Shown in pieces: positions 3,273 to 10,821 of a DNA stretch of 13,454 nt (positions are counted from its first letter, which is position 1; each line of letters begins with the position of its first letter). Source of the DNA: an uncultured bacterium (GTDB lineage: Bacteria; Acidobacteriota; Thermoanaerobaculia; Multivoradales; JAHZIX01); NCBI GenBank assembly GCA_965368975.1, contig CBDUPA010000049.1, positions 1 through 13,454 on the forward strand. Direction: 5' to 3'. Position numbers and translations under genes: made by a program. The notes below the pieces were generated by a model, which worked only from the letters and a program-made list of their open reading frames with translations, was not told the origin of the DNA and did no database searches.

Positions 3273-3357
3273 GATGGGCTGATCGTATCCCAGAAGCAGA
3301 GCCAGTGCTTGCCTGGCCAGCTAGTTAGCAGTCGAAGGGCAGGTGGGCTACCCGGCT

Positions 3358-3378
3358 ACTTCTGAGGAACTTCTGAGG
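3358..3378. repeat. Tandem direct repeat ACTTCTGAGG x2 (11-bp period), possible recombinase arm site
   Basis: ACTTCTGAGG at 3358-3367 and 3369-3378, just downstream of the recombinase stop. The repeat is certain; the function is inferred. Confidence 0.5.
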
Positions 3379-3389
3379 CTCTGGACAGC

Positions 3390-3409
3390 GGCTGCCAGAT
3401 CAGGCAGCC
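3390..3409 (-). terminator. Hairpin over the recombinase stop codon
   Basis: GGCTGCC-AGATCA-GGCAGCC perfect 7-bp stem. No adjacent U-tract. Confidence 0.3.
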
Positions 3410-4302
3410 AGAGAGGGAATGTCGAGGCTTTTCACAGCTTGCCGCTTGGCTGTCTCGCCTCGCCGATCGTATCTACGAGTTGTGTCGGCATTGGCGTGGC
3501 CGGCGAGTCGCTGGACGGTGAAGACGTCGACGCCAGCGTCCAGCATGTGGGAAACGTTTGAACGTCGAAGATCGTGTGCCGAGAAGTGGTCTACGCCGGC
3601 TTGCTGCTGCCGGCGGCGCAGGATGTAGGCGACGCAACTGCCGCGTAGGCGGGTGTGGCGGACCTCTCCTGTCTGGCGGATCGGGCAGAAGAGCGGGCCG
3701 GGCTCGTCGCCCCGGACGTTGAGCCAAGCGGCCAGGTACTGGCAACCGGCATCACTCAGGTAGACCATGCGCTCCTTGTTGCCCTTGCCGTGCACGAGGA
3801 TGGCACCGTCCTCCAGGTCGACGTCGGCGACGTTGAGTCGGGCGACCTCTCCTCTGCGCAGGCCACAGCCGTAGAGGACCGTGAGCAGAGCGGCGTCACG
3901 TGTGCTCTTGGGGCTGGCGTCGCTGGCGCAGGCACTGAACAACTGCACGATCTCGGGCATTTCCAGGGCGCGTCCTGCCGGCAGCTTCGAAGATCGGACG
4001 TTCGGTACTGCTGCGGCGCGTTGGTAGGTGTCGGCGTCGATCAAGCCGAGCGCCCAGCATTGCTTGAGCACACCGCGCAGCGTGGACAGGACCTTATTGA
4101 CGGTCGCGGGTTGGTAGCGCGCAACCAGGGCTTGCCGTACGGCCATGCCGTCGGCGTAGGTCAGTCGCCACCAGGGGTAGGTGTCGATGGTGTGGCTGGG
4201 ATCGAGGATGTCGACGATCTTGTCGAGGCAGCGGCGCATGCCTTGGCTGCCTTTGGACAGACTGGCCATATAGAGGCGGGCGGGGTTGGCGGTGGTGATC
4301 AT
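3400..4302 (-). CDS. Tyrosine recombinase, simple Xer-like/resolvase type without arm domain (300 aa)
   Basis: Catalytic set GLRRGE (R), GKGNK (K), HDLRR, AGH and RYDRR (Y); core-binding region PATVNKVLSTLRGVLK. Start placed at ATG 4302 after AGGAGAAAGG rather than 4410. Confidence 0.93.
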   Translation of the reverse strand: MITTANPARLYMASLSKGSQGMRRCLDKIVDILDPSHTIDTYPWWRLTYADGMAVRQALVARYQPATVNKVLSTLRGVLKQCWALGLIDADTYQRAAAVPNVRSSKLPAGRALEMPEIVQLFSACASDASPKSTRDAALLTVLYGCGLRRGEVARLNVADVDLEDGAILVHGKGNKERMVYLSDAGCQYLAAWLNVRGDEPGPLFCPIRQTGEVRHTRLRGSCVAYILRRRQQQAGVDHFSAHDLRRSNVSHMLDAGVDVFTVQRLAGHANADTTRRYDRRGETAKRQAVKSLDIPSLAA

Positions 4303-4748
4303 GGTGGGTCCTTTCTCCTGGTGGTTGACTTGAGATGTGAAGCTGGAAAGGAGTGGGCTACGCGTCGTAAGTGTCCTCTTTCTCGTCTCTTGAGTCTCCG
4401 CGTACTCCATGGATACGGGATTTCGCGATAGCTCGTCAACGGGACGGCATCGGAATTCTCGGGGAACCGTTCGGGCAATAGAGCGCCTGGTCCGGTTTGG
4501 TGATCAGGTAGCCAGCGGTGGGAAGGGGGCATGGAGAGCCCTGGAGGGCGTGACCCAGGTCACCTAGGTGGCCTGATACCCGGCAAGGGTGGTTTCAGGC
4601 TGGAGGTAGCCTCTCCACGATGGAGAGCAGCTGTAGAGCTGAGGCAGGGGCTGGGTGGGTAGCCGGAGGGTGGCTACGAAGGAGAACCGCCCCGGCGGGA
4701 GCGGCAAGCAGAGGTAGGAACTCCGAAGTCAGAGGGAGATTGGGTGCT

Positions 4749-5168
4749 TTACTTCTTGGCGCTACGCGCCTTCGGCCGGGCAGGTGGCTTGGCCGGTCGC
4801 TTCGGGCTCTCCTCCACCTTCTCCGGCAGCCGAAAGCCGACAACACCGTTGCCGAAGTCTTCGGCATCGAAGCGCTGCGCCTTCTCGGCGCTCAAGCCGT
4901 GGTGGGCAAACAAGCGCTTGCCATCGACCAGGCGCGAGACGCTGTTGCTCTGCGTGCGCAGACGGTAGGCACCTCGGACACCTTCGGACGCGGCCTTGAG
5001 ACCAACGGCGCAGTTGGATGCATCGAAGCCGAGTTGGACGTGGGTCGTGCCCTTGCCCAGCATCTCGACGGTCGCGGCGGTCAGGACCAGGACACCGCCC
5101 CGGCGGACAGTGATTTCGGCGGTCGCTGCGCTGTCGGTGGTCTTGCCTTCGTAGAACTCGAAACCCAT
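4749..5168 (-). CDS. Hypothetical protein, possibly AbrB-like swapped-hairpin DNA-binding protein with basic P/A/K tail
   Basis: Strong RBS AAGGAG. ITVRRGGVLVLTAATVEMLG..VQLGFD resembles the AbrB beta-beta-alpha-beta pattern. C-terminus is SPKRPAKPPARPKARSAKK. Confidence 0.7.
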   Translation of the reverse strand: MGFEFYEGKTTDSAATAEITVRRGGVLVLTAATVEMLGKGTTHVQLGFDASNCAVGLKAASEGVRGAYRLRTQSNSVSRLVDGKRLFAHHGLSAEKAQRFDAEDFGNGVVGFRLPEKVEESPKRPAKPPARPKARSAKK

Positions 5169-5223
5169 GGTGATCTCCTTGCGGGCTGAGCGACGGCAGC
5201 ATTGCCGCGCTCTGTGGTGGTGG

Positions 5224-5253
5224 GTTGTATTCGCGAACGCGGCGAGTGGTCAA
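5224..5253 (-). promoter_or_regulatory. Putative sigma70 promoter of the 139-aa gene
   Basis: TTGACC-N18-TACAAC on the minus strand, with the palindrome TTCGCGAA in the spacer. Confidence 0.4.
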
Positions 5254-5307
5254 CGGTGCCAGCTCGGATTTCTCGTGGAAGGGTCTTGTTTCCGGCATTT
5301 CGGCGGG

Positions 5308-6462
5308 TTACCCAACGAGAATCTCGTCCAGCCTGTCGGCCCAGCGGGCCAAAGCTTCTGTCTTCTCAGGACTGTAGGAGTGTCGATCGTAGATCACCGT
5401 GACACCGCTCTCGACGTGGTTCAGGAGCTTCGAGACGACCAGCCGAGAGACGGCCATCGACGTCATGCAGGTGGCTGCCGTGCGCCGTAGGTCGTGCGGC
5501 ACGAAGTCGACGTCAGCTTTCTTGGCGATTCGTTCGGCAGCCTTCTGCACGGCGACGATGTGCCGTCCCGGCTTGCGCGGACTCGCGAACACCCACGCTC
5601 CACTCCCAGTCGAAGGACGTAGCTCATCGAGCAGGGCCAGCGCTTGAGGCGCGAGCGGCACGCGGTGGGTGAGGCCGTTCTTTGCGACGTCGGCAGGAAT
5701 CGTCCACCAGGCACCGTCGATGCGCTGCCAGCGCATCTTCAGGACCTCGACGCCGCGCTGTGCGGTCAGAAGCCGCATGCGGAACGTCGCCGCCATCACC
5801 GGGTGCTCGTCGTCGAGGGCTCGCCACAGCCGGCGGATCTCCTCTTCGCTGAGCACCCGCTCACGCGGACGCTCACGCGCCGGCATCGGCACCAGCAGAC
5901 ACGGATTGTGCTCGACGAGGCCGCGCCCGATGCCGAAGTTGTAGATCTTCGAAATGAGCGCCTTGACCCGGTTTGCCATGATCGGCGCGCCACGCGCCAC
6001 GATCGCGTCGAGCACCTCTCCCACTTCTCTCCTCCCGATGCTCTTGGCCTTGCGGCTCTGCCAGTGCGGCAGCAGATCGACGCGCAGCTTACGTGCGTCT
6101 TCCTGCCACCGCCGTTTCTTGGTCTTGGCGTGACGCTCCAGGTAGACCTGGGCCAACTCCCCGAAGGTCACCGACTCTCGTTCGGCGACCTTCTTGACCT
6201 GAGGATCCTCGCCCTTGGCGATGGCCGCCAGCTTCTTGCGCGCCTCGTCGCGGGCTTCGGCCAGACTCATCGCCGGGTAGACGCCCAGGTTCAAGCGGCG
6301 CTTGCTGCCGCTGGCACCCTTGTAGCGCACGATAAACGTCTTGCGGCCACTCTTGGATACCCGCACCCCGAAGCCGGGCAGCTGCTCGTCCCAGTAATCG
6401 GTCATCCAGCGTCCGGCGGTGAAGGTCTCGATCGCGCGGTGGGTCAAGTGGGCTTTGGGCAT
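5308..6462 (-). CDS. P4-like tyrosine integrase with N-terminal arm-DNA-binding (DUF4102/Arm-DNA-bind_3-type) domain
   Basis: N-terminal LTHRAIE...WDEQLPGFGVRVSKSGRKTF...LGVYPAMSLAEAR; catalytic TAQRGVE, KNG, HDLRR, LNH and IYDRH. Confidence 0.95.
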   Translation of the reverse strand: MPKAHLTHRAIETFTAGRWMTDYWDEQLPGFGVRVSKSGRKTFIVRYKGASGSKRRLNLGVYPAMSLAEARDEARKKLAAIAKGEDPQVKKVAERESVTFGELAQVYLERHAKTKKRRWQEDARKLRVDLLPHWQSRKAKSIGRREVGEVLDAIVARGAPIMANRVKALISKIYNFGIGRGLVEHNPCLLVPMPARERPRERVLSEEEIRRLWRALDDEHPVMAATFRMRLLTAQRGVEVLKMRWQRIDGAWWTIPADVAKNGLTHRVPLAPQALALLDELRPSTGSGAWVFASPRKPGRHIVAVQKAAERIAKKADVDFVPHDLRRTAATCMTSMAVSRLVVSKLLNHVESGVTVIYDRHSYSPEKTEALARWADRLDEILVG

Positions 6463-6471
6463 CGGCTGACC

Positions 6472-7461
6472 TCAATGCACCGGCTGGACCTGACACCACT
6501 GCCCGGCATCCGCGATCGTAATCGAGGCGTAGAGATGTACTCCCAGCGCCGCGCCCGCCTCGCGAAGACGGTGCGTGAAGCGCTCGTCCTGTCGGCTCGG
6601 TCGCGGGTTGCCGGAGGGGTGGTTGTGCGCAACGACGATTGCGCGAGCGCTGGCCAGTAAAGCAGAAGCGAGAATCCCGCGGGGCTCGGCCTGAGTTGCG
6701 GTCATTGTTCCGATGTACGGCACGTCCCAACCAATGACGCGAAGCGCACCATCGAGGAAGAGCACGGCCACGGCTTCACGGTCGTAGCTCTGCAGGACCT
6801 GCCAGAGCAGCGCTGCGGCATCCCCGTGAGCGCGGATCTGGGGATAGGTCTGCAGCGGTGCACCTGTCTCGCGTACCAACTCGACGCGCAGGCGCGGGAG
6901 GTTCGGCAGCGAGGTTAACGCAGCTTGCCTCATCGAGCGGATCGGATGGCCTTGCGGAAGGTTCGTGCGGCACGGTCGACGTTTCATTCGATCGGCCGGC
7001 AGCGCGGCAACCAGCGGAACCAGCTCACCTTCGTCGAGCTGGATCTGATCCAGCACCGCCGCCAGCTCCGCACTGGGCCGAAGGTCGACCCAGCCGAAGC
7101 GCGATACCCGTTCGCCGACCTCGAAGCCGACTTCCTGCGCCAGGCTGCGGAAGAGTCGGTTGTGGTAGCCGCGGTGGCAGCAGTCCTTGAGACCGCGCAG
7201 GCCGTTTACCCAGTGCACCATCGCGTGCAGCAGTGCGACCAAGACCTCGGAGGTCGAACCTGTCAAGGCGTGCGCGGGTACGCGCACGCTTTGTGGTCGC
7301 TCGTCGTACTCGTGCCGTGCTCGAGGTGAGATGCCCTCGATCCGCACGCATGACGGAACATGCGCCAGCCCAGGTTCGAAGCGGTCGAGGAGCTGAGCGC
7401 AGCAGCGCTCAAGCTCCTGTTCCGCCCGTGCGACGTCGGTGCCGGTGTCCATACCCGGCAT
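6472..7461 (-). CDS. SprT-like (degenerate HExxH) domain fused to RadC/JAB (MPN+) domain
   Basis: C-terminal DREAVAVLFLD...EPRGILASALLASARAIVVAHNHPSGNPRPSRQD is RadC/JAB. N-terminal LLHAMVH...GYHNRLFRSLAQEVG is a SprT-like motif with E replaced by A. Confidence 0.85.
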   Translation of the reverse strand: MPGMDTGTDVARAEQELERCCAQLLDRFEPGLAHVPSCVRIEGISPRARHEYDERPQSVRVPAHALTGSTSEVLVALLHAMVHWVNGLRGLKDCCHRGYHNRLFRSLAQEVGFEVGERVSRFGWVDLRPSAELAAVLDQIQLDEGELVPLVAALPADRMKRRPCRTNLPQGHPIRSMRQAALTSLPNLPRLRVELVRETGAPLQTYPQIRAHGDAAALLWQVLQSYDREAVAVLFLDGALRVIGWDVPYIGTMTATQAEPRGILASALLASARAIVVAHNHPSGNPRPSRQDERFTHRLREAGAALGVHLYASITIADAGQWCQVQPVH

Positions 7462-7464
7462 CGC

Positions 7465-7875
7465 TCAGCTTTCCTGATCCGGAGCGGTGCCTAAGGTCTC
7501 TTCGAGCTGGGTTGCCTGGGCTCCCAGTTGCTCCGCCAGCTCGACCGCGAACAAGTGCAACTGCACCACCTCGGGACCGTCGACGCTGCCCGGCTCGACA
7601 CCGAGGTGGTGGATGTACCCCTGAAGCTGTCGCAGGTCACGGAGCACCGCGCGCAAGTCGGACTTGACCGGGACTTCGCCGCGCTCCTTGTAGGTCTCTT
7701 CGTGAAGCAGGGCGTTGTCGTAGAGCGTGACGCCGACACTGCGGAAAGCGTCACGGATGTGGGCTTCCGGGTACAGGTGCAGGTACGTCTCGCGGAAGAC
7801 GGCGTGCGCCTCCCAGTGGCTTGGTTGCAGAGGGTTTGGCGTTTGGGCCTTGGTAAGCTGCGGCTGGTCACTCAT
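7465..7875 (-). CDS. Hypothetical helical protein (136 aa), first gene of the integrase operon
   Basis: Start reassigned to ATG 7875 after AAGGAG (7885-7890). Its stop is 3 nt from the next start. Confidence 0.75.
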   Translation of the reverse strand: MSDQPQLTKAQTPNPLQPSHWEAHAVFRETYLHLYPEAHIRDAFRSVGVTLYDNALLHEETYKERGEVPVKSDLRAVLRDLRQLQGYIHHLGVEPGSVDGPEVVQLHLFAVELAEQLGAQATQLEETLGTAPDQES

Positions 7876-7942
7876 GGAACTCTTCTCCTTTGAGTGGCTA
7901 GGCCCGGTTCGGTGTGTCAGCATCGGATCGGGCCGTTTGCTT
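7866..7942 (+). ncRNA. Putative cis-antisense RNA (SymR-like architecture)
   Basis: Extended -10 TGgTAAGCT at 7851-7859. 14-bp hairpin at 7901-7934 is fully paired on + (3 G:U pairs), followed by GTTTGCTT. Spans the start codon and RBS of orf136 on the opposite strand. Confidence 0.55.
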
Positions 7943-8131
7943 GGGAGGTGAGCAGCCTGAGCTGGCAAGCCAGGACAGGCTGGCACCCGGATGGGCTGGT
8001 ACCACTACCTCGGAATCAGGCGACTGGTCAACCAGCCAGCCCTTTAGGCCAGCTCACCTCGCAACCTGCTTCTCTGATGATCCTGGTGCCAGTGCCGAGT
8101 GCAGCAGCTTCTGGCGTACAATCTGTTGCAC

Positions 8132-10387
8132 ATGGCTTCGCAAGTTCAAGTTTTCGTCAGCTACAGCCACCAGGACGAGAAGTACCTCGCTGAGAGTTCC
8201 CTTCTGGGCTATATGAAGGGTTTACAGCAAGAAGGCGTGGAGTTCTGGTGGGACCGGCGCATCGGCGCTGGCGAGTTGTGGAATACGGAGATCCAAGCTC
8301 GAGTTGCAAACTCCCACGTTGCACTGGTGCTGGTGAGCCAGTGGTTCCTGGATTCCGCGTACTGCCGGGACAAAGAGATCCGCGAGTTCCTGGACAAACG
8401 CATTCCCATTGTTCCCGTGGTGCTCTCTGCCTGCGAATGGGAGCGTCATCCGTGGCTAGCCGAGCGGCAATATGTACCCCGCGATGGCCAGAACTTGGAA
8501 AGCCACTTCCAGCAGGACGGCAAACGCAAGGAGCTGTTCCTAGAGCTGCGACAGAACCTGCGGCAGCAGATCGACGCGGTGAAGCAAGAGAAAGCCGGTG
8601 CCCAGGTGGCGAAGGTTCCGCAGAAGTTCGCCGACCTGGGTGCCGAACTTCAAGAGGCACTGCTGCTCAAAGAGGATCTGATCTGTGCGGAAGAGAGTGT
8701 GGAGGAGGTCGAAGAGAAGATCCTCGACCTACGTCGCAAGATTCGGCAGGGCAACATTCTGCGACCGGGCGACTTCCTCTGTGAGCGATTCAAGCTGCTG
8801 GCCAAGCTGGGTAAGGGAGGCTTTGCCGATGTCTGGAAGGCCTATGACCGCAAACGCACCCAACTGGTAGCCGTGAAAATCCTGCATCACCAATACGTTG
8901 AAGATCGCTCGCGGCGGGAGCGCTTTTTCCGAGGTGCACGCAAGATGGCAGAGCTGCGTGATCAGGGAATCGTGGATGTGCTTGACGTGGAGATGGAGGA
9001 TGATGGGCGCTACTTCTTCGTCATGGAGTTCGTGGAAGGTGGAGACCTGCGCCAAGCGATATTGAGAAGGAACATGACGGTACCGGAGAAGCTTCAGATC
9101 ATCCGACAGACTGGTAAGGCGCTGGCCGTCGCCCACGCCCGAGGCTGGGTTCACCGGGACGTCAAGCCGGAGAACATCCTGTTAGGAACTGATGGTCTGC
9201 ACAAACTAACCGACTTCGACCTGGTACGGGCAGCGGACACCACCGGGGGCACACGAACCGGCGCCATGGGTACCTTCGTCTATGCGGCACCCGAGATGCT
9301 CGAGAATGCCCAGGAAGCAGGAACCGCTGCAGATATCTTCGGCCTCGGAATGACCGCAATCTTCGCTCTGTACGGCAAGAAGCTGCCGACGAGTATCCTT
9401 CGGGATCCCGCGAAGACCATCGCCAAGCTCCCAGTGGACGACAGCATCCGCCAAGCCCTGCTGTGTGCAGTGGATTGGGAGCCGGAAGCGCGCTTCCAGA
9501 CCGTGGAGGAGTTCTATCGGCTCCTGGAATGCCAACCACTGCCACCTCCGGCCCTTGCCCTGAGTTCCGAGCAGGAGCACCCCGCGACAAAGAAGCCTCA
9601 GCCCAAGACAAGTCCTCCTCAGCGCCAAGATCTGGCAAAACCCCAGCAGCCACAAGCTGGCACCGAGTGGATTCATCCGGTGAGCGGCGTGGTGCTGGTC
9701 TACGTACCTGGTGGCGAGTACACGATCGGCTCGAACGATCACTACGACGACGAGAAGCCTGAGCACCGAGTTCTTCTGAGTCCGTTCTGGATCGGCAAGT
9801 ACCCGGTCACCAACGCGGAATACGCGACCTTCATGCACGCAACGGATCGCCGCAGGCTGGAGTGGTGGACCAACCAGGCCTTCAATCAGAAACTGCAGCC
9901 AGTAGTCAACGTCAGTTGGCACGATGCAAATGTCTATTGCAACTGGGCAGGCCTGACGCTACCGACTGAGATCCAGTGGGAAGCGGCCGCACGCGGGCTA
10001 GATGGACGTCCGTACCCTTGGGGAGAAGCCAGTCCCACAGGTCAGTACGCACACTATGACCAGGGAGATGCTGGCTGCACTGCGGCAGTCGATGCGTACC
10101 CGCTTGGTACTGGCCCCTTCGGCACGCTCGGGCAGGCCGGCAATGTCTTGGAGTGGTGCGCAGACCCGTGGGAGAGCACAGCATACAGGTGGCGCGACAC
10201 TGGATACGTAGAGGCTCCACCAGCCAAACGCCGAGCAACTCCGGATCGCGTGGTCCGTGGGGGGGCGTGGGTGGGCCGGGCCAGGGACCTACGCGCAGCA
10301 TACCGGGGCAACCGGGGGGTAGCGGAGCGCCGGTACAGGCACGTCGGTTTCCGCGTCTTGGTACCTGGCTCCGGCTCCGAACATTGA
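8132..10387 (+). CDS. TIR domain - coiled coil - Ser/Thr kinase - FGE-sulfatase (CLec-fold) multidomain protein
   Basis: TIR: VFVSYSHQD...WWDRRIGAGELW...LVLVSQWFLDSAYCRDKE. Kinase: GKGGFADV, VAVK, HRDVKPEN, DFD, APE. FGE: GKYPVTNAEY, PVVNVSWHDA, LPTEIQWEAAARG, AGNVLEW, RGGAW, GFR. ATG 8132 preferred over GTG 8099; TACAAT at 8117-8122. Confidence 0.93.
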   Translation: MASQVQVFVSYSHQDEKYLAESSLLGYMKGLQQEGVEFWWDRRIGAGELWNTEIQARVANSHVALVLVSQWFLDSAYCRDKEIREFLDKRIPIVPVVLSACEWERHPWLAERQYVPRDGQNLESHFQQDGKRKELFLELRQNLRQQIDAVKQEKAGAQVAKVPQKFADLGAELQEALLLKEDLICAEESVEEVEEKILDLRRKIRQGNILRPGDFLCERFKLLAKLGKGGFADVWKAYDRKRTQLVAVKILHHQYVEDRSRRERFFRGARKMAELRDQGIVDVLDVEMEDDGRYFFVMEFVEGGDLRQAILRRNMTVPEKLQIIRQTGKALAVAHARGWVHRDVKPENILLGTDGLHKLTDFDLVRAADTTGGTRTGAMGTFVYAAPEMLENAQEAGTAADIFGLGMTAIFALYGKKLPTSILRDPAKTIAKLPVDDSIRQALLCAVDWEPEARFQTVEEFYRLLECQPLPPPALALSSEQEHPATKKPQPKTSPPQRQDLAKPQQPQAGTEWIHPVSGVVLVYVPGGEYTIGSNDHYDDEKPEHRVLLSPFWIGKYPVTNAEYATFMHATDRRRLEWWTNQAFNQKLQPVVNVSWHDANVYCNWAGLTLPTEIQWEAAARGLDGRPYPWGEASPTGQYAHYDQGDAGCTAAVDAYPLGTGPFGTLGQAGNVLEWCADPWESTAYRWRDTGYVEAPPAKRRATPDRVVRGGAWVGRARDLRAAYRGNRGVAERRYRHVGFRVLVPGSGSEH

Positions 10388-10467
10388 CTTTTGCTCGAAC
10401 CCTTGGGTAGCCCCCAGTTGCACCAAATTGCATGCCAGCAGGCCCCGATGGAGGCCCGCACCATAGC

Positions 10468-10496
10468 TTGCCACTCACTTGATGAGCAGCTATAAT
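10468..10496 (+). promoter_or_regulatory. Near-consensus sigma70 promoter
   Basis: TTGCCA-N17-TATAAT. Confidence 0.7.
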
Positions 10497-10527
10497 GACC
10501 TAAGTATTGGGAATAAAGAGGTTGGAC

Positions 10528-10572
10528 TGGAGACGACGACCGGATTTGAACCGGTGACCTGCTGATTACGAA
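10528..10572 (-). pseudogene. 3' half of tRNA-Thr(CGT); att core of a tRNA-targeted island
   Basis: Minus strand reads TT-CGT-AA TCAGC AGGTC ACCGG-TTCAAAT-CCGGT CGTCGTC T CCA. It begins exactly at the anticodon loop; the upstream TATGT cannot pair with TCAGC and no D arm is present. Confidence 0.9.
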
Positions 10573-10704
10573 ACATACAAGCTCGGTGTTTCGTCAGGTA
10601 TTGGCAGGCTACAGAGAGATGCACATCCCCCTGTCAAATGCTGGGATTAAGAGACTTGAGGCGTTTCATCGGCTGGCATGAGGCTGCGCCAAGTTAAGGT
10701 TCCG

Positions 10705-10743
10705 TGGACCCAGATTTGGACCCAGCTGGCCCCGAATGGGTCC
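10705..10743. repeat. Integrase arm-type repeats
   Basis: TGGACCCAG at 10705-10713 and 10717-10725 (12-bp period), plus an inverted TGGGTCC at 10737-10743, about 130-170 bp from the att core. Confidence 0.6.
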
Positions 10744-10821
10744 CGCCTGGAAGAGCCGCACTGCCTTCGCTTGCCAGGTCCTCACCTTACATCGGACCAA
10801 CTTGCAGGAAACAACTCAGCT

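Follow-up and report, generated by a model that had tools for sequence, protein, structure and literature searches.

The window that we have analyzed is a 13,454-nucleotide (nt) stretch of DNA from an uncultured bacterium of the Acidobacteriota (class Thermoanaerobaculia, order Multivoradales), corresponding to contig CBDUPA010000049.1 of assembly GCA_965368975.1. On its minus strand lies an operon of three genes. The first is orf136 (7465-7875, with its ATG at 7875-7873), the second encodes a protein of 329 amino acids with a C-terminal RadC-like JAB domain (6472-7461), and the third encodes a P4-type tyrosine integrase with Arm-DNA-bind_3, Phage_int_M and Phage_integrase domains (5308-6462). 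The genes are separated by just 3 and 9 nt, so that the tight spacing noted in an earlier reading of the sequence (the original prediction) is correct. On the opposite strand, over the start of orf136, positions 7851-7942 contain a compact module comprising a predicted promoter, two hairpins and a T-rich tail. We think it rather probable, judging from the sequence and its homologs, that this module is the gene for a small antisense RNA of about 77 nt that represses the operon.

The predicted RNA extends from around 7866 to 7942 of the plus strand, and comprises hairpin 1, a single A, hairpin 2 and the tail. Hairpin 2 (7901-7934) is formed by GGCCCGGTTCGGTG (7901-7914) and CATCGGATCGGGCC (7921-7934), making a terminator-like stem of 14 base pairs (bp) that is closed by a variable 6-nt loop, here TGTCAG. 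All 14 positions are paired on the plus strand, including three G:U pairs that become A.C mismatches on the mRNA strand, exactly as originally claimed; at the DNA level a repeat search finds the two arms 79% complementary. There is a second structure that had been overlooked. Hairpin 1 (7866-7899), with arms GGTCACTCA and TGAGTGGCT, was revealed by RNAfold, and has the anti-start codon CAT (7873-7875) in its stem and the anti-Shine-Dalgarno sequence CTCCTT (7885-7890, the complement of AAGGAG in the mRNA) within its inner helix, beneath a variable apical loop. Both the AUG and the AAGGAG of orf136 thus lie within the span of the predicted RNA, as had been proposed, and its complementarity to the 5' leader, the Shine-Dalgarno sequence, the AUG and the first three codons of the mRNA is complete. 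The calculated folding energy of 7866-7942 is -43.2 kcal/mol on the plus strand (z = -6.74), and none of 200 shuffled sequences folds equally well. The corresponding value for the mRNA strand is -24.4 kcal/mol (z = -3.52).

The module occurs 13 times in this 7.1-Mb genome. There are 12 full-length paralogs of orf136 (76-88% identity) together with a 40%-identical copy on contig C11 and a fragment on C7, and the 110 nt around the module recur beside each of the 12 paralogs with 82-91% identity. A covariance model of the module, R1, scores 93.7 bits over 7849-7947 of the window, and finds 13 full sites in the genome, all of them at the starts of orf136-family genes. Its other matches there are weak ones on the reverse strand, to the near-palindromic hairpin 2. 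By a six-frame protein search, relatives of orf136 (24-49% identity) are found in 16 of 41 related genomes (G000 included), frequently with multiple copies per genome. From these, 27 loci in other genomes were retrieved and 23 examined, having dropped two that gave no tblastn match (L028 and L030) and two with short, weak matches (L031 and L040).

We aligned 27 segments from nine genomes using MAFFT, 13 from this genome and 14 from eight others, leaving aside L043, which has a deletion in its hairpin 1. RNAalifold recovers both hairpins from this alignment (A1). Standard base pairs occupy 93.1% of its 729 cells, compared with 81.6% on shuffling the columns (a level of pairing reached in 0 of 500 shuffles), and pairing falls to 35-54% if the 3' partners are slid by one to three columns. 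Changes have occurred on both sides in 17 of the 27 base pairs. Hairpin 2 is the stronger case of covariation, with 11 of its 14 pairs changed on both sides and 97.9% of cells paired; for the 13 pairs of helix 1 the corresponding values are six pairs and 88%.

The pairing has a clear polarity. In A1, 142 cells hold G:U pairs when read on the antisense strand, compared with 10 A.C cells (54 and 3 for hairpin 2 alone), and canonical pairing is 93.1% when read as antisense but 75.0% when read as sense. For a second set of 34 sequences aligned by the model the G:U and A.C counts are 184 and 12, and the pairing 96.5% and 77.8%, so that the polarity seen in the window is kept in its homologs, a check that had been suggested at the outset. 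The antisense strand is the more stable in all 28 homologous segments, with free energies of -36 to -54 kcal/mol compared with -21 to -46 kcal/mol for the sense strand. A mutational artefact is an unlikely source of the G:U polarity, because deamination of the non-template strand of orf136 would be expected to bias it in the opposite direction. Together the covariation and the excess of G:U over A.C reveal a conserved RNA structure on the antisense strand.

These data bear on two other ways in which the hairpins might function. Acting on the sense strand, they could form a cis-regulatory leader of orf136 that hides the Shine-Dalgarno sequence and the AUG, with no antisense RNA involved. The mRNA strand also folds better than its shuffled counterparts and places the AUG in a stem, Watson-Crick covariation is strand-neutral, and the paralog C55 pairs perfectly on either strand. 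Yet a sense-strand leader would pair only 75.0-77.8% of cells, against 93.1-96.5% for the antisense strand, would be the less stable structure in 28 of 28 segments, and would leave unexplained both an invariant TAnnnT within the coding region and the T-rich tail on the plus strand. We consider it unlikely. Alternatively the inverted repeat could work as DNA, as a binding or crossover site for a tyrosine recombinase, as an operator, or as a hairpin in single-stranded DNA during transfer. Its geometry of 14-bp arms flanking a variable 6-bp spacer resembles recombinase core sites, two recombinase genes lie nearby, and in the 12 paralogs the arms are almost invariant while the spacer varies. However, the arms covary between genomes (at 11 of 14 pairs), which is unexpected for a site recognized by a protein, and the preference for G:T over A.C by 54 to 3 is indicative of RNA, or at the very least of a single strand. 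Moreover a DNA site would have no need of a -10 box at a constant distance. Nor does the repeat mark the junction of an element, since homology between the copies continues for 100 nt beyond it and the junction is found at the tRNA-Thr fragment described below; the module was rejected as an element junction because the homology runs straight through it. A function as DNA therefore seems very unlikely to us.

Next to hairpin 1 the plus strand has the predicted extended -10 box TGgTAAGCT that the original prediction had pointed out. It is present at 7851-7859 (with the hexamer at 7854-7859), inside codons 6-8 of orf136. The T, the A and the last T of the hexamer are invariant in all 27 segments of A1, as is the CAT, and the G at -14 is nearly so. 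All 34 strong matches to model R1 read TAnnnT, as TAGACT in 21 and TAGAAT in six, the rest being divided between TACACT, TACGAT, TAAGCT, TAAACT and TAGTCT; in these two sets the box is conserved, which was another suggested check. The residues encoded under the box vary, and include Q-L-T, Q-H-T, Q-S-T, Q-F-T, E-C-S and D-S-N among others. One of the invariant bases is the third position of codon 7, which is always T, whereas T occupies only 10% of third positions in orf136. The first 20 residues of the protein are predicted to be disordered, leaving room for constraint at the level of the nucleotide sequence. The gap between the hexamer and the foot of hairpin 1 is constant at 6 nt, so that the RNA would begin at hairpin 1, and it is from this spacing that we place the predicted start near 7866.

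We also examined the promoter pattern in loci chosen by protein similarity alone. An in-frame start codon followed after 13 nt by A-n-n-n-T-A, which becomes TAnnnT on the opposite strand, is found in 13 of 13 copies in this genome and in 15 of 23 from other genomes, the latter being the unbiased figure. The loci that have the pattern also carry both hairpins upstream. At the other end of the module the tail GTTTGCTT (7935-7942) lies in a region that is T-enriched among the homologs; for the 9 nt that follow hairpin 2, the mean T fraction over the 34 sequences is 0.42, compared with 0.24 across the whole matches. A terminator scan accepts 7901-7934 plus the tail on the plus strand, although one site per 1.1 kb against a shuffle mean of 0.6 is not significant alone.

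Several observations weigh against an antisense RNA gene. The tail is interrupted, and would be weak as an intrinsic terminator. A scan for two-hexamer promoters gave no sites, there being no -35 box but just the extended -10. The TG of that box is mostly confined to the copies in this genome, and is found in only three of the 34 other sequences (the G at -14 in 29 of 34). The model that gathered those 34 sequences contained the promoter columns, and their alignment (A3) was fitted to the structure of the model. In both sets many rows are paralogs or close kin, whereby the cell counts overstate the number of independent events. Hairpin 2 of the C55 paralog is fully Watson-Crick paired and so carries no information on polarity, while that of C56 has two mismatches. 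Lastly, the promoter pattern is absent from eight of the 23 loci defined by protein, including the three copies in genome G001 (L017, L032 and L041), which also give no R1 match at E ≤ 1e-4. These three are homologs of orf136 with 45-49% identity that share a different leader, in which TTGACA, 18 nt and TACTCC are followed by a GGCCCGG...CCGGGCC hairpin. It is possible that in G001 the antisense promoter disappeared or was exchanged for another sequence.

Beyond this genome the module is widespread within the order, where R1 finds it in 67 of 151 genomes sampled, with about 440 matches (150 listed and 291 more) and up to 27 in a single genome; in a sample of 151 genomes across the phylum it was found in eight (both counts include G000). 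In each of the 34 strong matches the CAT (33 sequences) or CAC (one sequence) of the model corresponds to the start codon of an open reading frame (ORF) of 78-221 amino acids. A profile of orf136 recognizes this first ORF in 25 cases and misses it in nine. Of 15 ORFs scanned further downstream, many of them clipped at the end of the locus, four encode RadC or UPF0758_N and one a transposase-like helix-turn-helix protein, and the remainder gave nothing above the cut-offs. Scanning genome contigs with a degenerate DNA pattern returned at least 119 stretches. Among the 80 loci that were examined with the model there were three strong matches, L105 and L121 from Acidobacteriota and L083 from Thermoanaerobaculia, and a weaker one (L087) in a Bradyrhizobium record. 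A further six rows below 25 bits were the weakest, two of them second matches in L105 and L087, and the remaining loci were chance matches in GC-rich DNA. Nothing similar to the module was found in plasmid and phage collections.

The module corresponds to no family in Rfam. A cmscan of the window against Rfam 15 at E ≤ 10 gave only two chance-level matches, both elsewhere than the module, and for eight other module-bearing loci nothing was found at the module at E ≤ 1. Thus no match was found to SymR or C4, for which a search had been suggested, nor to FinP, RNA-OUT, radC, Acido-1 or Acido-Lenti-1. At one locus, just after the RadC gene beside a module copy in another genome (L190:2549-2621, plus strand), there is a sub-threshold match to the int-alpA RNA of Rfam (30.2 bits compared with a gathering score of 35.8; E = 0.0084).

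While the comparative evidence from the -10 box, the hairpins, their polarity and the tail supports the discrete antisense RNA of the original prediction, two of its attributions to the genes below are not supported. The first is that orf136 could encode a toxin. No match to orf136 is found in Pfam, NCBIfam or PHROGs. A model generated by AlphaFold2 is a three-helix bundle (mean predicted local distance difference test score 78.1), with the disordered N-terminus mentioned above. Searching the PDB with Foldseek gave nothing at E ≤ 0.001, the top matches being Dps-like four-helix bundles at E of about 1, and the ESM Atlas yielded only fungal clusters of low recognition. A search of 5.8 billion proteins returned 13, with no named protein among them, while a single-protein pattern search of genome contigs led to 305 pattern matches and no confirmed relatives. 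The protein is predicted to be soluble, with no toxin feature found. The second attribution is the label SprT for the RadC-JAB protein. Residues 213-318 match Pfam RadC (5e-28; NCBIfam RadC matches fall below the curated cut-offs), but for residues 1-200 there is no Pfam match, even with the threshold relaxed to E ≤ 10. The sequence HAMVH at about residues 79-83 corresponds to HExxH with alanine replacing the catalytic glutamate. The domain ahead of the RadC-JAB region matches just one PHROG, the unannotated phrog_6361. The SprT label is accordingly unconfirmed.

In a type I toxin-antitoxin system orf136 would be toxic and the antisense RNA would be the antitoxin, together stabilizing the island in which they reside. 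The layout is similar to that of SymR and symE, and islands often carry addiction modules. However, the predicted soluble helical bundle is neither a small membrane peptide nor an AbrB-like SymE fold (the all-helical model and the lack of a Pfam match agree with the earlier view that orf136 does not look like SymE), and no toxin family was found in Pfam, NCBIfam or PHROGs, PADLOC not having been searched. Furthermore orf136 heads an operon with RadC-JAB and integrase genes, and nine of the 34 strong matches precede first ORFs that the orf136 profile misses. We regard a toxin-antitoxin role as very improbable.

The operon is part of a multicopy island. The integrase domains and the 3' fragment of a tRNA-Thr(CGT) gene at 10528-10575 (minus strand) identify it as a P4-type integrase island at a tRNA gene, the left end of which lies beyond the contig. 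By BLAST of the window against the genome the core common to the copies extends from about 3339 to 8034; homology stops around 8034 and resumes at 10414-10750. Within the core at lower coordinates on the minus strand are small ORFs and then a gene for a XerC-like tyrosine recombinase (3400-4410). The tRNA fragment aligns with an intact tRNA-Thr(CGT) gene at C15:32296-32370 (complement), which directly adjoins the island copy C15b, and it is likely to be a remnant of the attachment site; ARAGORN finds no whole tRNA in the window. Since the segment 10414-10750 holds the 3' part of tRNA-Thr and the intact gene adjoins C15b, the module lies at the tRNA-proximal end of islands that are integrated in tandem at tRNA-Thr. 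There are three copies on C28 and two on C15. Several of the contigs C42, C15, C55, C56, C45 and C7 have an end that falls within a JAB or integrase gene of the island, and C42 and C15 both start 1258 nt before the stop codon of orf136. Evidently the island repeats broke the assembly, and for this reason the true copy number may be higher. Elsewhere in the window a short conserved segment (2039-2207) recurs in at least 10 contigs, and 159-460 of the plus strand, inside an ORF at 141-785, gives BLAST matches to itself that are displaced by 63 and 126 nt (identity about 74%). The latter suggests that a unit of about 63 nt is tandemly repeated in coding sequence that matches no family.

Between the core and the tRNA segment is a variable cargo slot (8035-10413). 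In the window it is occupied by a gene at 8099-10387 on the plus strand, encoding a protein of 762 amino acids with TIR, Ser/Thr protein kinase and FGE-sulfatase-like domains by Pfam, which looks like a defense-type gene. The size of the slot ranges from about 120 nt in the copies C15b and C28b to about 6.2 kb in C48. This variation bears on the possibility that, instead of specifying a free-standing small RNA, the plus-strand promoter and hairpins serve as a leader or attenuator when transcription runs outward into the slot. The first large cargo ORF is indeed co-oriented in three copies, namely those of the window, C15a and C56, where it begins 50-270 nt after the model match. However, the adjacent cargo is convergent or mixed in C42, C45, C28a, C28b, C55 and C48, and the module is still conserved in C15b and C28b, where the slot is nearly empty. 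With the cargo otherwise convergent, mixed or absent, a dedicated cargo leader was rejected, and we give this explanation very little weight.

The promoter of the operon itself is assigned tentatively. On the minus strand TTGACC (8031-8026) and TAGTGG (8007-8002) are separated by 18 nt, and are kept in the 12 paralogs and in the copies of genomes G003 and G001. The -10 sequence departs from the usual form, and other genomes have different upstream regions; on comparing these regions a sense promoter common to all the genomes could not be established. A box with GGTAGTGG recurs on the sense strand 60-110 nt upstream of hairpin 2, at 8002-8031 in the window and in L170, L173, L175, L177, L180, L186, L191, L194 and L083, and is often followed by a CAGTTTGAAATCC-like sequence; L171, L197, L047 and L190 have GTGTCCTAACAGCGTGTTGG-like boxes in its place. 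These boxes could be a sense promoter, an operator or an arm site for the integrase.

Returning to the antisense RNA, we find its closest counterpart in architecture to be FinP/traJ. FinP is about 79 nt in length, its second stem-loop doubles as a terminator, and its loops differ between related plasmids and set specificity. The loops of the module similarly vary while the stems are kept. FinP is described as a stem-loop antisense RNA that is complementary to traJ's 5' untranslated region (UTR) and inhibits translation (PMC3105414). The predicted RNA likewise has two stem-loops and lies opposite the 5' UTR of a gene that heads a mobility operon. Unlike FinP, the operon that it faces encodes the predicted helical product of orf136 together with a RadC-JAB protein and a tyrosine integrase in place of a conjugation activator, and the predicted promoter of the RNA is located inside a coding region. 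No gene for a ProQ/FinO-domain protein (PF04352) was found in this genome, which is 99.3% complete, using a search for which the control in E. coli was positive. Hfq is present.

Two further systems resemble the module in the placement of its predicted promoter. In IS10/Tn10 an outward promoter just inside the first gene, near the end of the element, gives RNA-OUT, a stable hairpin RNA of about 70 nt that is complementary to the Shine-Dalgarno sequence and AUG in the mRNA of the mobility gene; because RNA-OUT works in trans, repression rises with copy number. The module resembles this in its predicted outward-facing promoter within a gene and its complementarity to the Shine-Dalgarno sequence and AUG, and it belongs to an element present in 13 copies. 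It differs in having two hairpins instead of one, and in that a tyrosine integrase encoded third in an operon takes the place of a DDE transposase. In SymR/symE the promoter for the antisense RNA is situated within the target gene, a few codons from its start, and the RNA, of about 77 nt, extends over the Shine-Dalgarno sequence and AUG. The original prediction drew attention to this system, and the likeness in layout and approximate size holds, although the target here would be an operon headed by the gene for a protein that is modeled as all-helical and not AbrB-like.

The radC RNA motif (RF01754) is a conserved structure that mobile DNA carries upstream of genes for radC, integrase and anti-restriction functions. 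It was described by Weinberg et al. 2010 and is listed for Proteobacteria (PMC2864571), and is a sense-strand element with several stems, about 150 nt long, in the 5' UTR. The module is also a structured element upstream of radC and integrase genes of mobile DNA. It is on the opposite strand, though, the alignment of the radC motif looks unrelated, and the Rfam model gives no match; judged by Table 1 and the supplementary Stockholm alignments of that paper, both the radC and Solibacter-1 motifs are different sequences, and were rejected as candidates. Full-text searches of the literature found no account of a RadC/integrase operon with an antisense RNA lying over it.

If the module is indeed an antisense RNA gene, the extended -10 would direct initiation at the base of hairpin 1, and the transcript would end beyond hairpin 2 and its T-rich tail. 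The resulting RNA would pair with the start region of the orf136 mRNA, perhaps by loop-loop contacts with the mirror-image hairpins of the mRNA, and this would either keep ribosomes from binding or cause the duplex to be cleaved. With the genes so closely spaced, repression would extend to those further along the operon. The two promoters would face each other about 140 bp apart, whereby transcriptional interference may add to the effect. The likely role would be to keep expression of the integrase low in established copies, while permitting a burst on the arrival of a copy in a cell without the RNA.

The loops of the module are highly variable. Among the 12 paralogs there are 0.02-0.05 differences per site in the stems and 0.32 at third codon positions, compared with 0.57-0.62 in the two loops; loop 1 is distinct in all 12, and loop 2 occurs in 11 distinct forms. 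This is compatible either with a lack of constraint on the loops or with selection for copy-specific recognition. A bridge-RNA-like guide for recombination was considered and rejected, since the loops vary yet the copies share one tRNA-Thr site. It is conceivable, if somewhat doubtful, that the hypervariable loops are address labels, such that the RNA of each island recognizes mainly its own mRNA by loop-loop kissing. They would then amount to an RNA-based code of immunity or incompatibility under diversifying selection, in a module that would be portable because it is also present before first ORFs that the orf136 profile misses. Tandem sister islands could in that event regulate their integrase operons independently, each escaping repression by the others.

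The module provides a clean example of a predicted promoter embedded in coding sequence and shaping the N-terminal residues of the protein (M-x-D-x-x-Q/E-S-T). To our knowledge almost no regulatory RNA has been characterized in the Acidobacteriota or the Thermoanaerobaculia. If transcribed, the module would represent an undescribed and very abundant family of small RNA within a single order, and in all probability it constitutes a new antisense RNA family, one that holds the integrase operon of the island in the off state. Such islands carry defense-like cargo, exemplified here by the TIR-kinase gene. Antisense repression of this kind would offer a concrete mechanism by which tandem tRNA-integrated islands silence their integrases and sense their own copy number.

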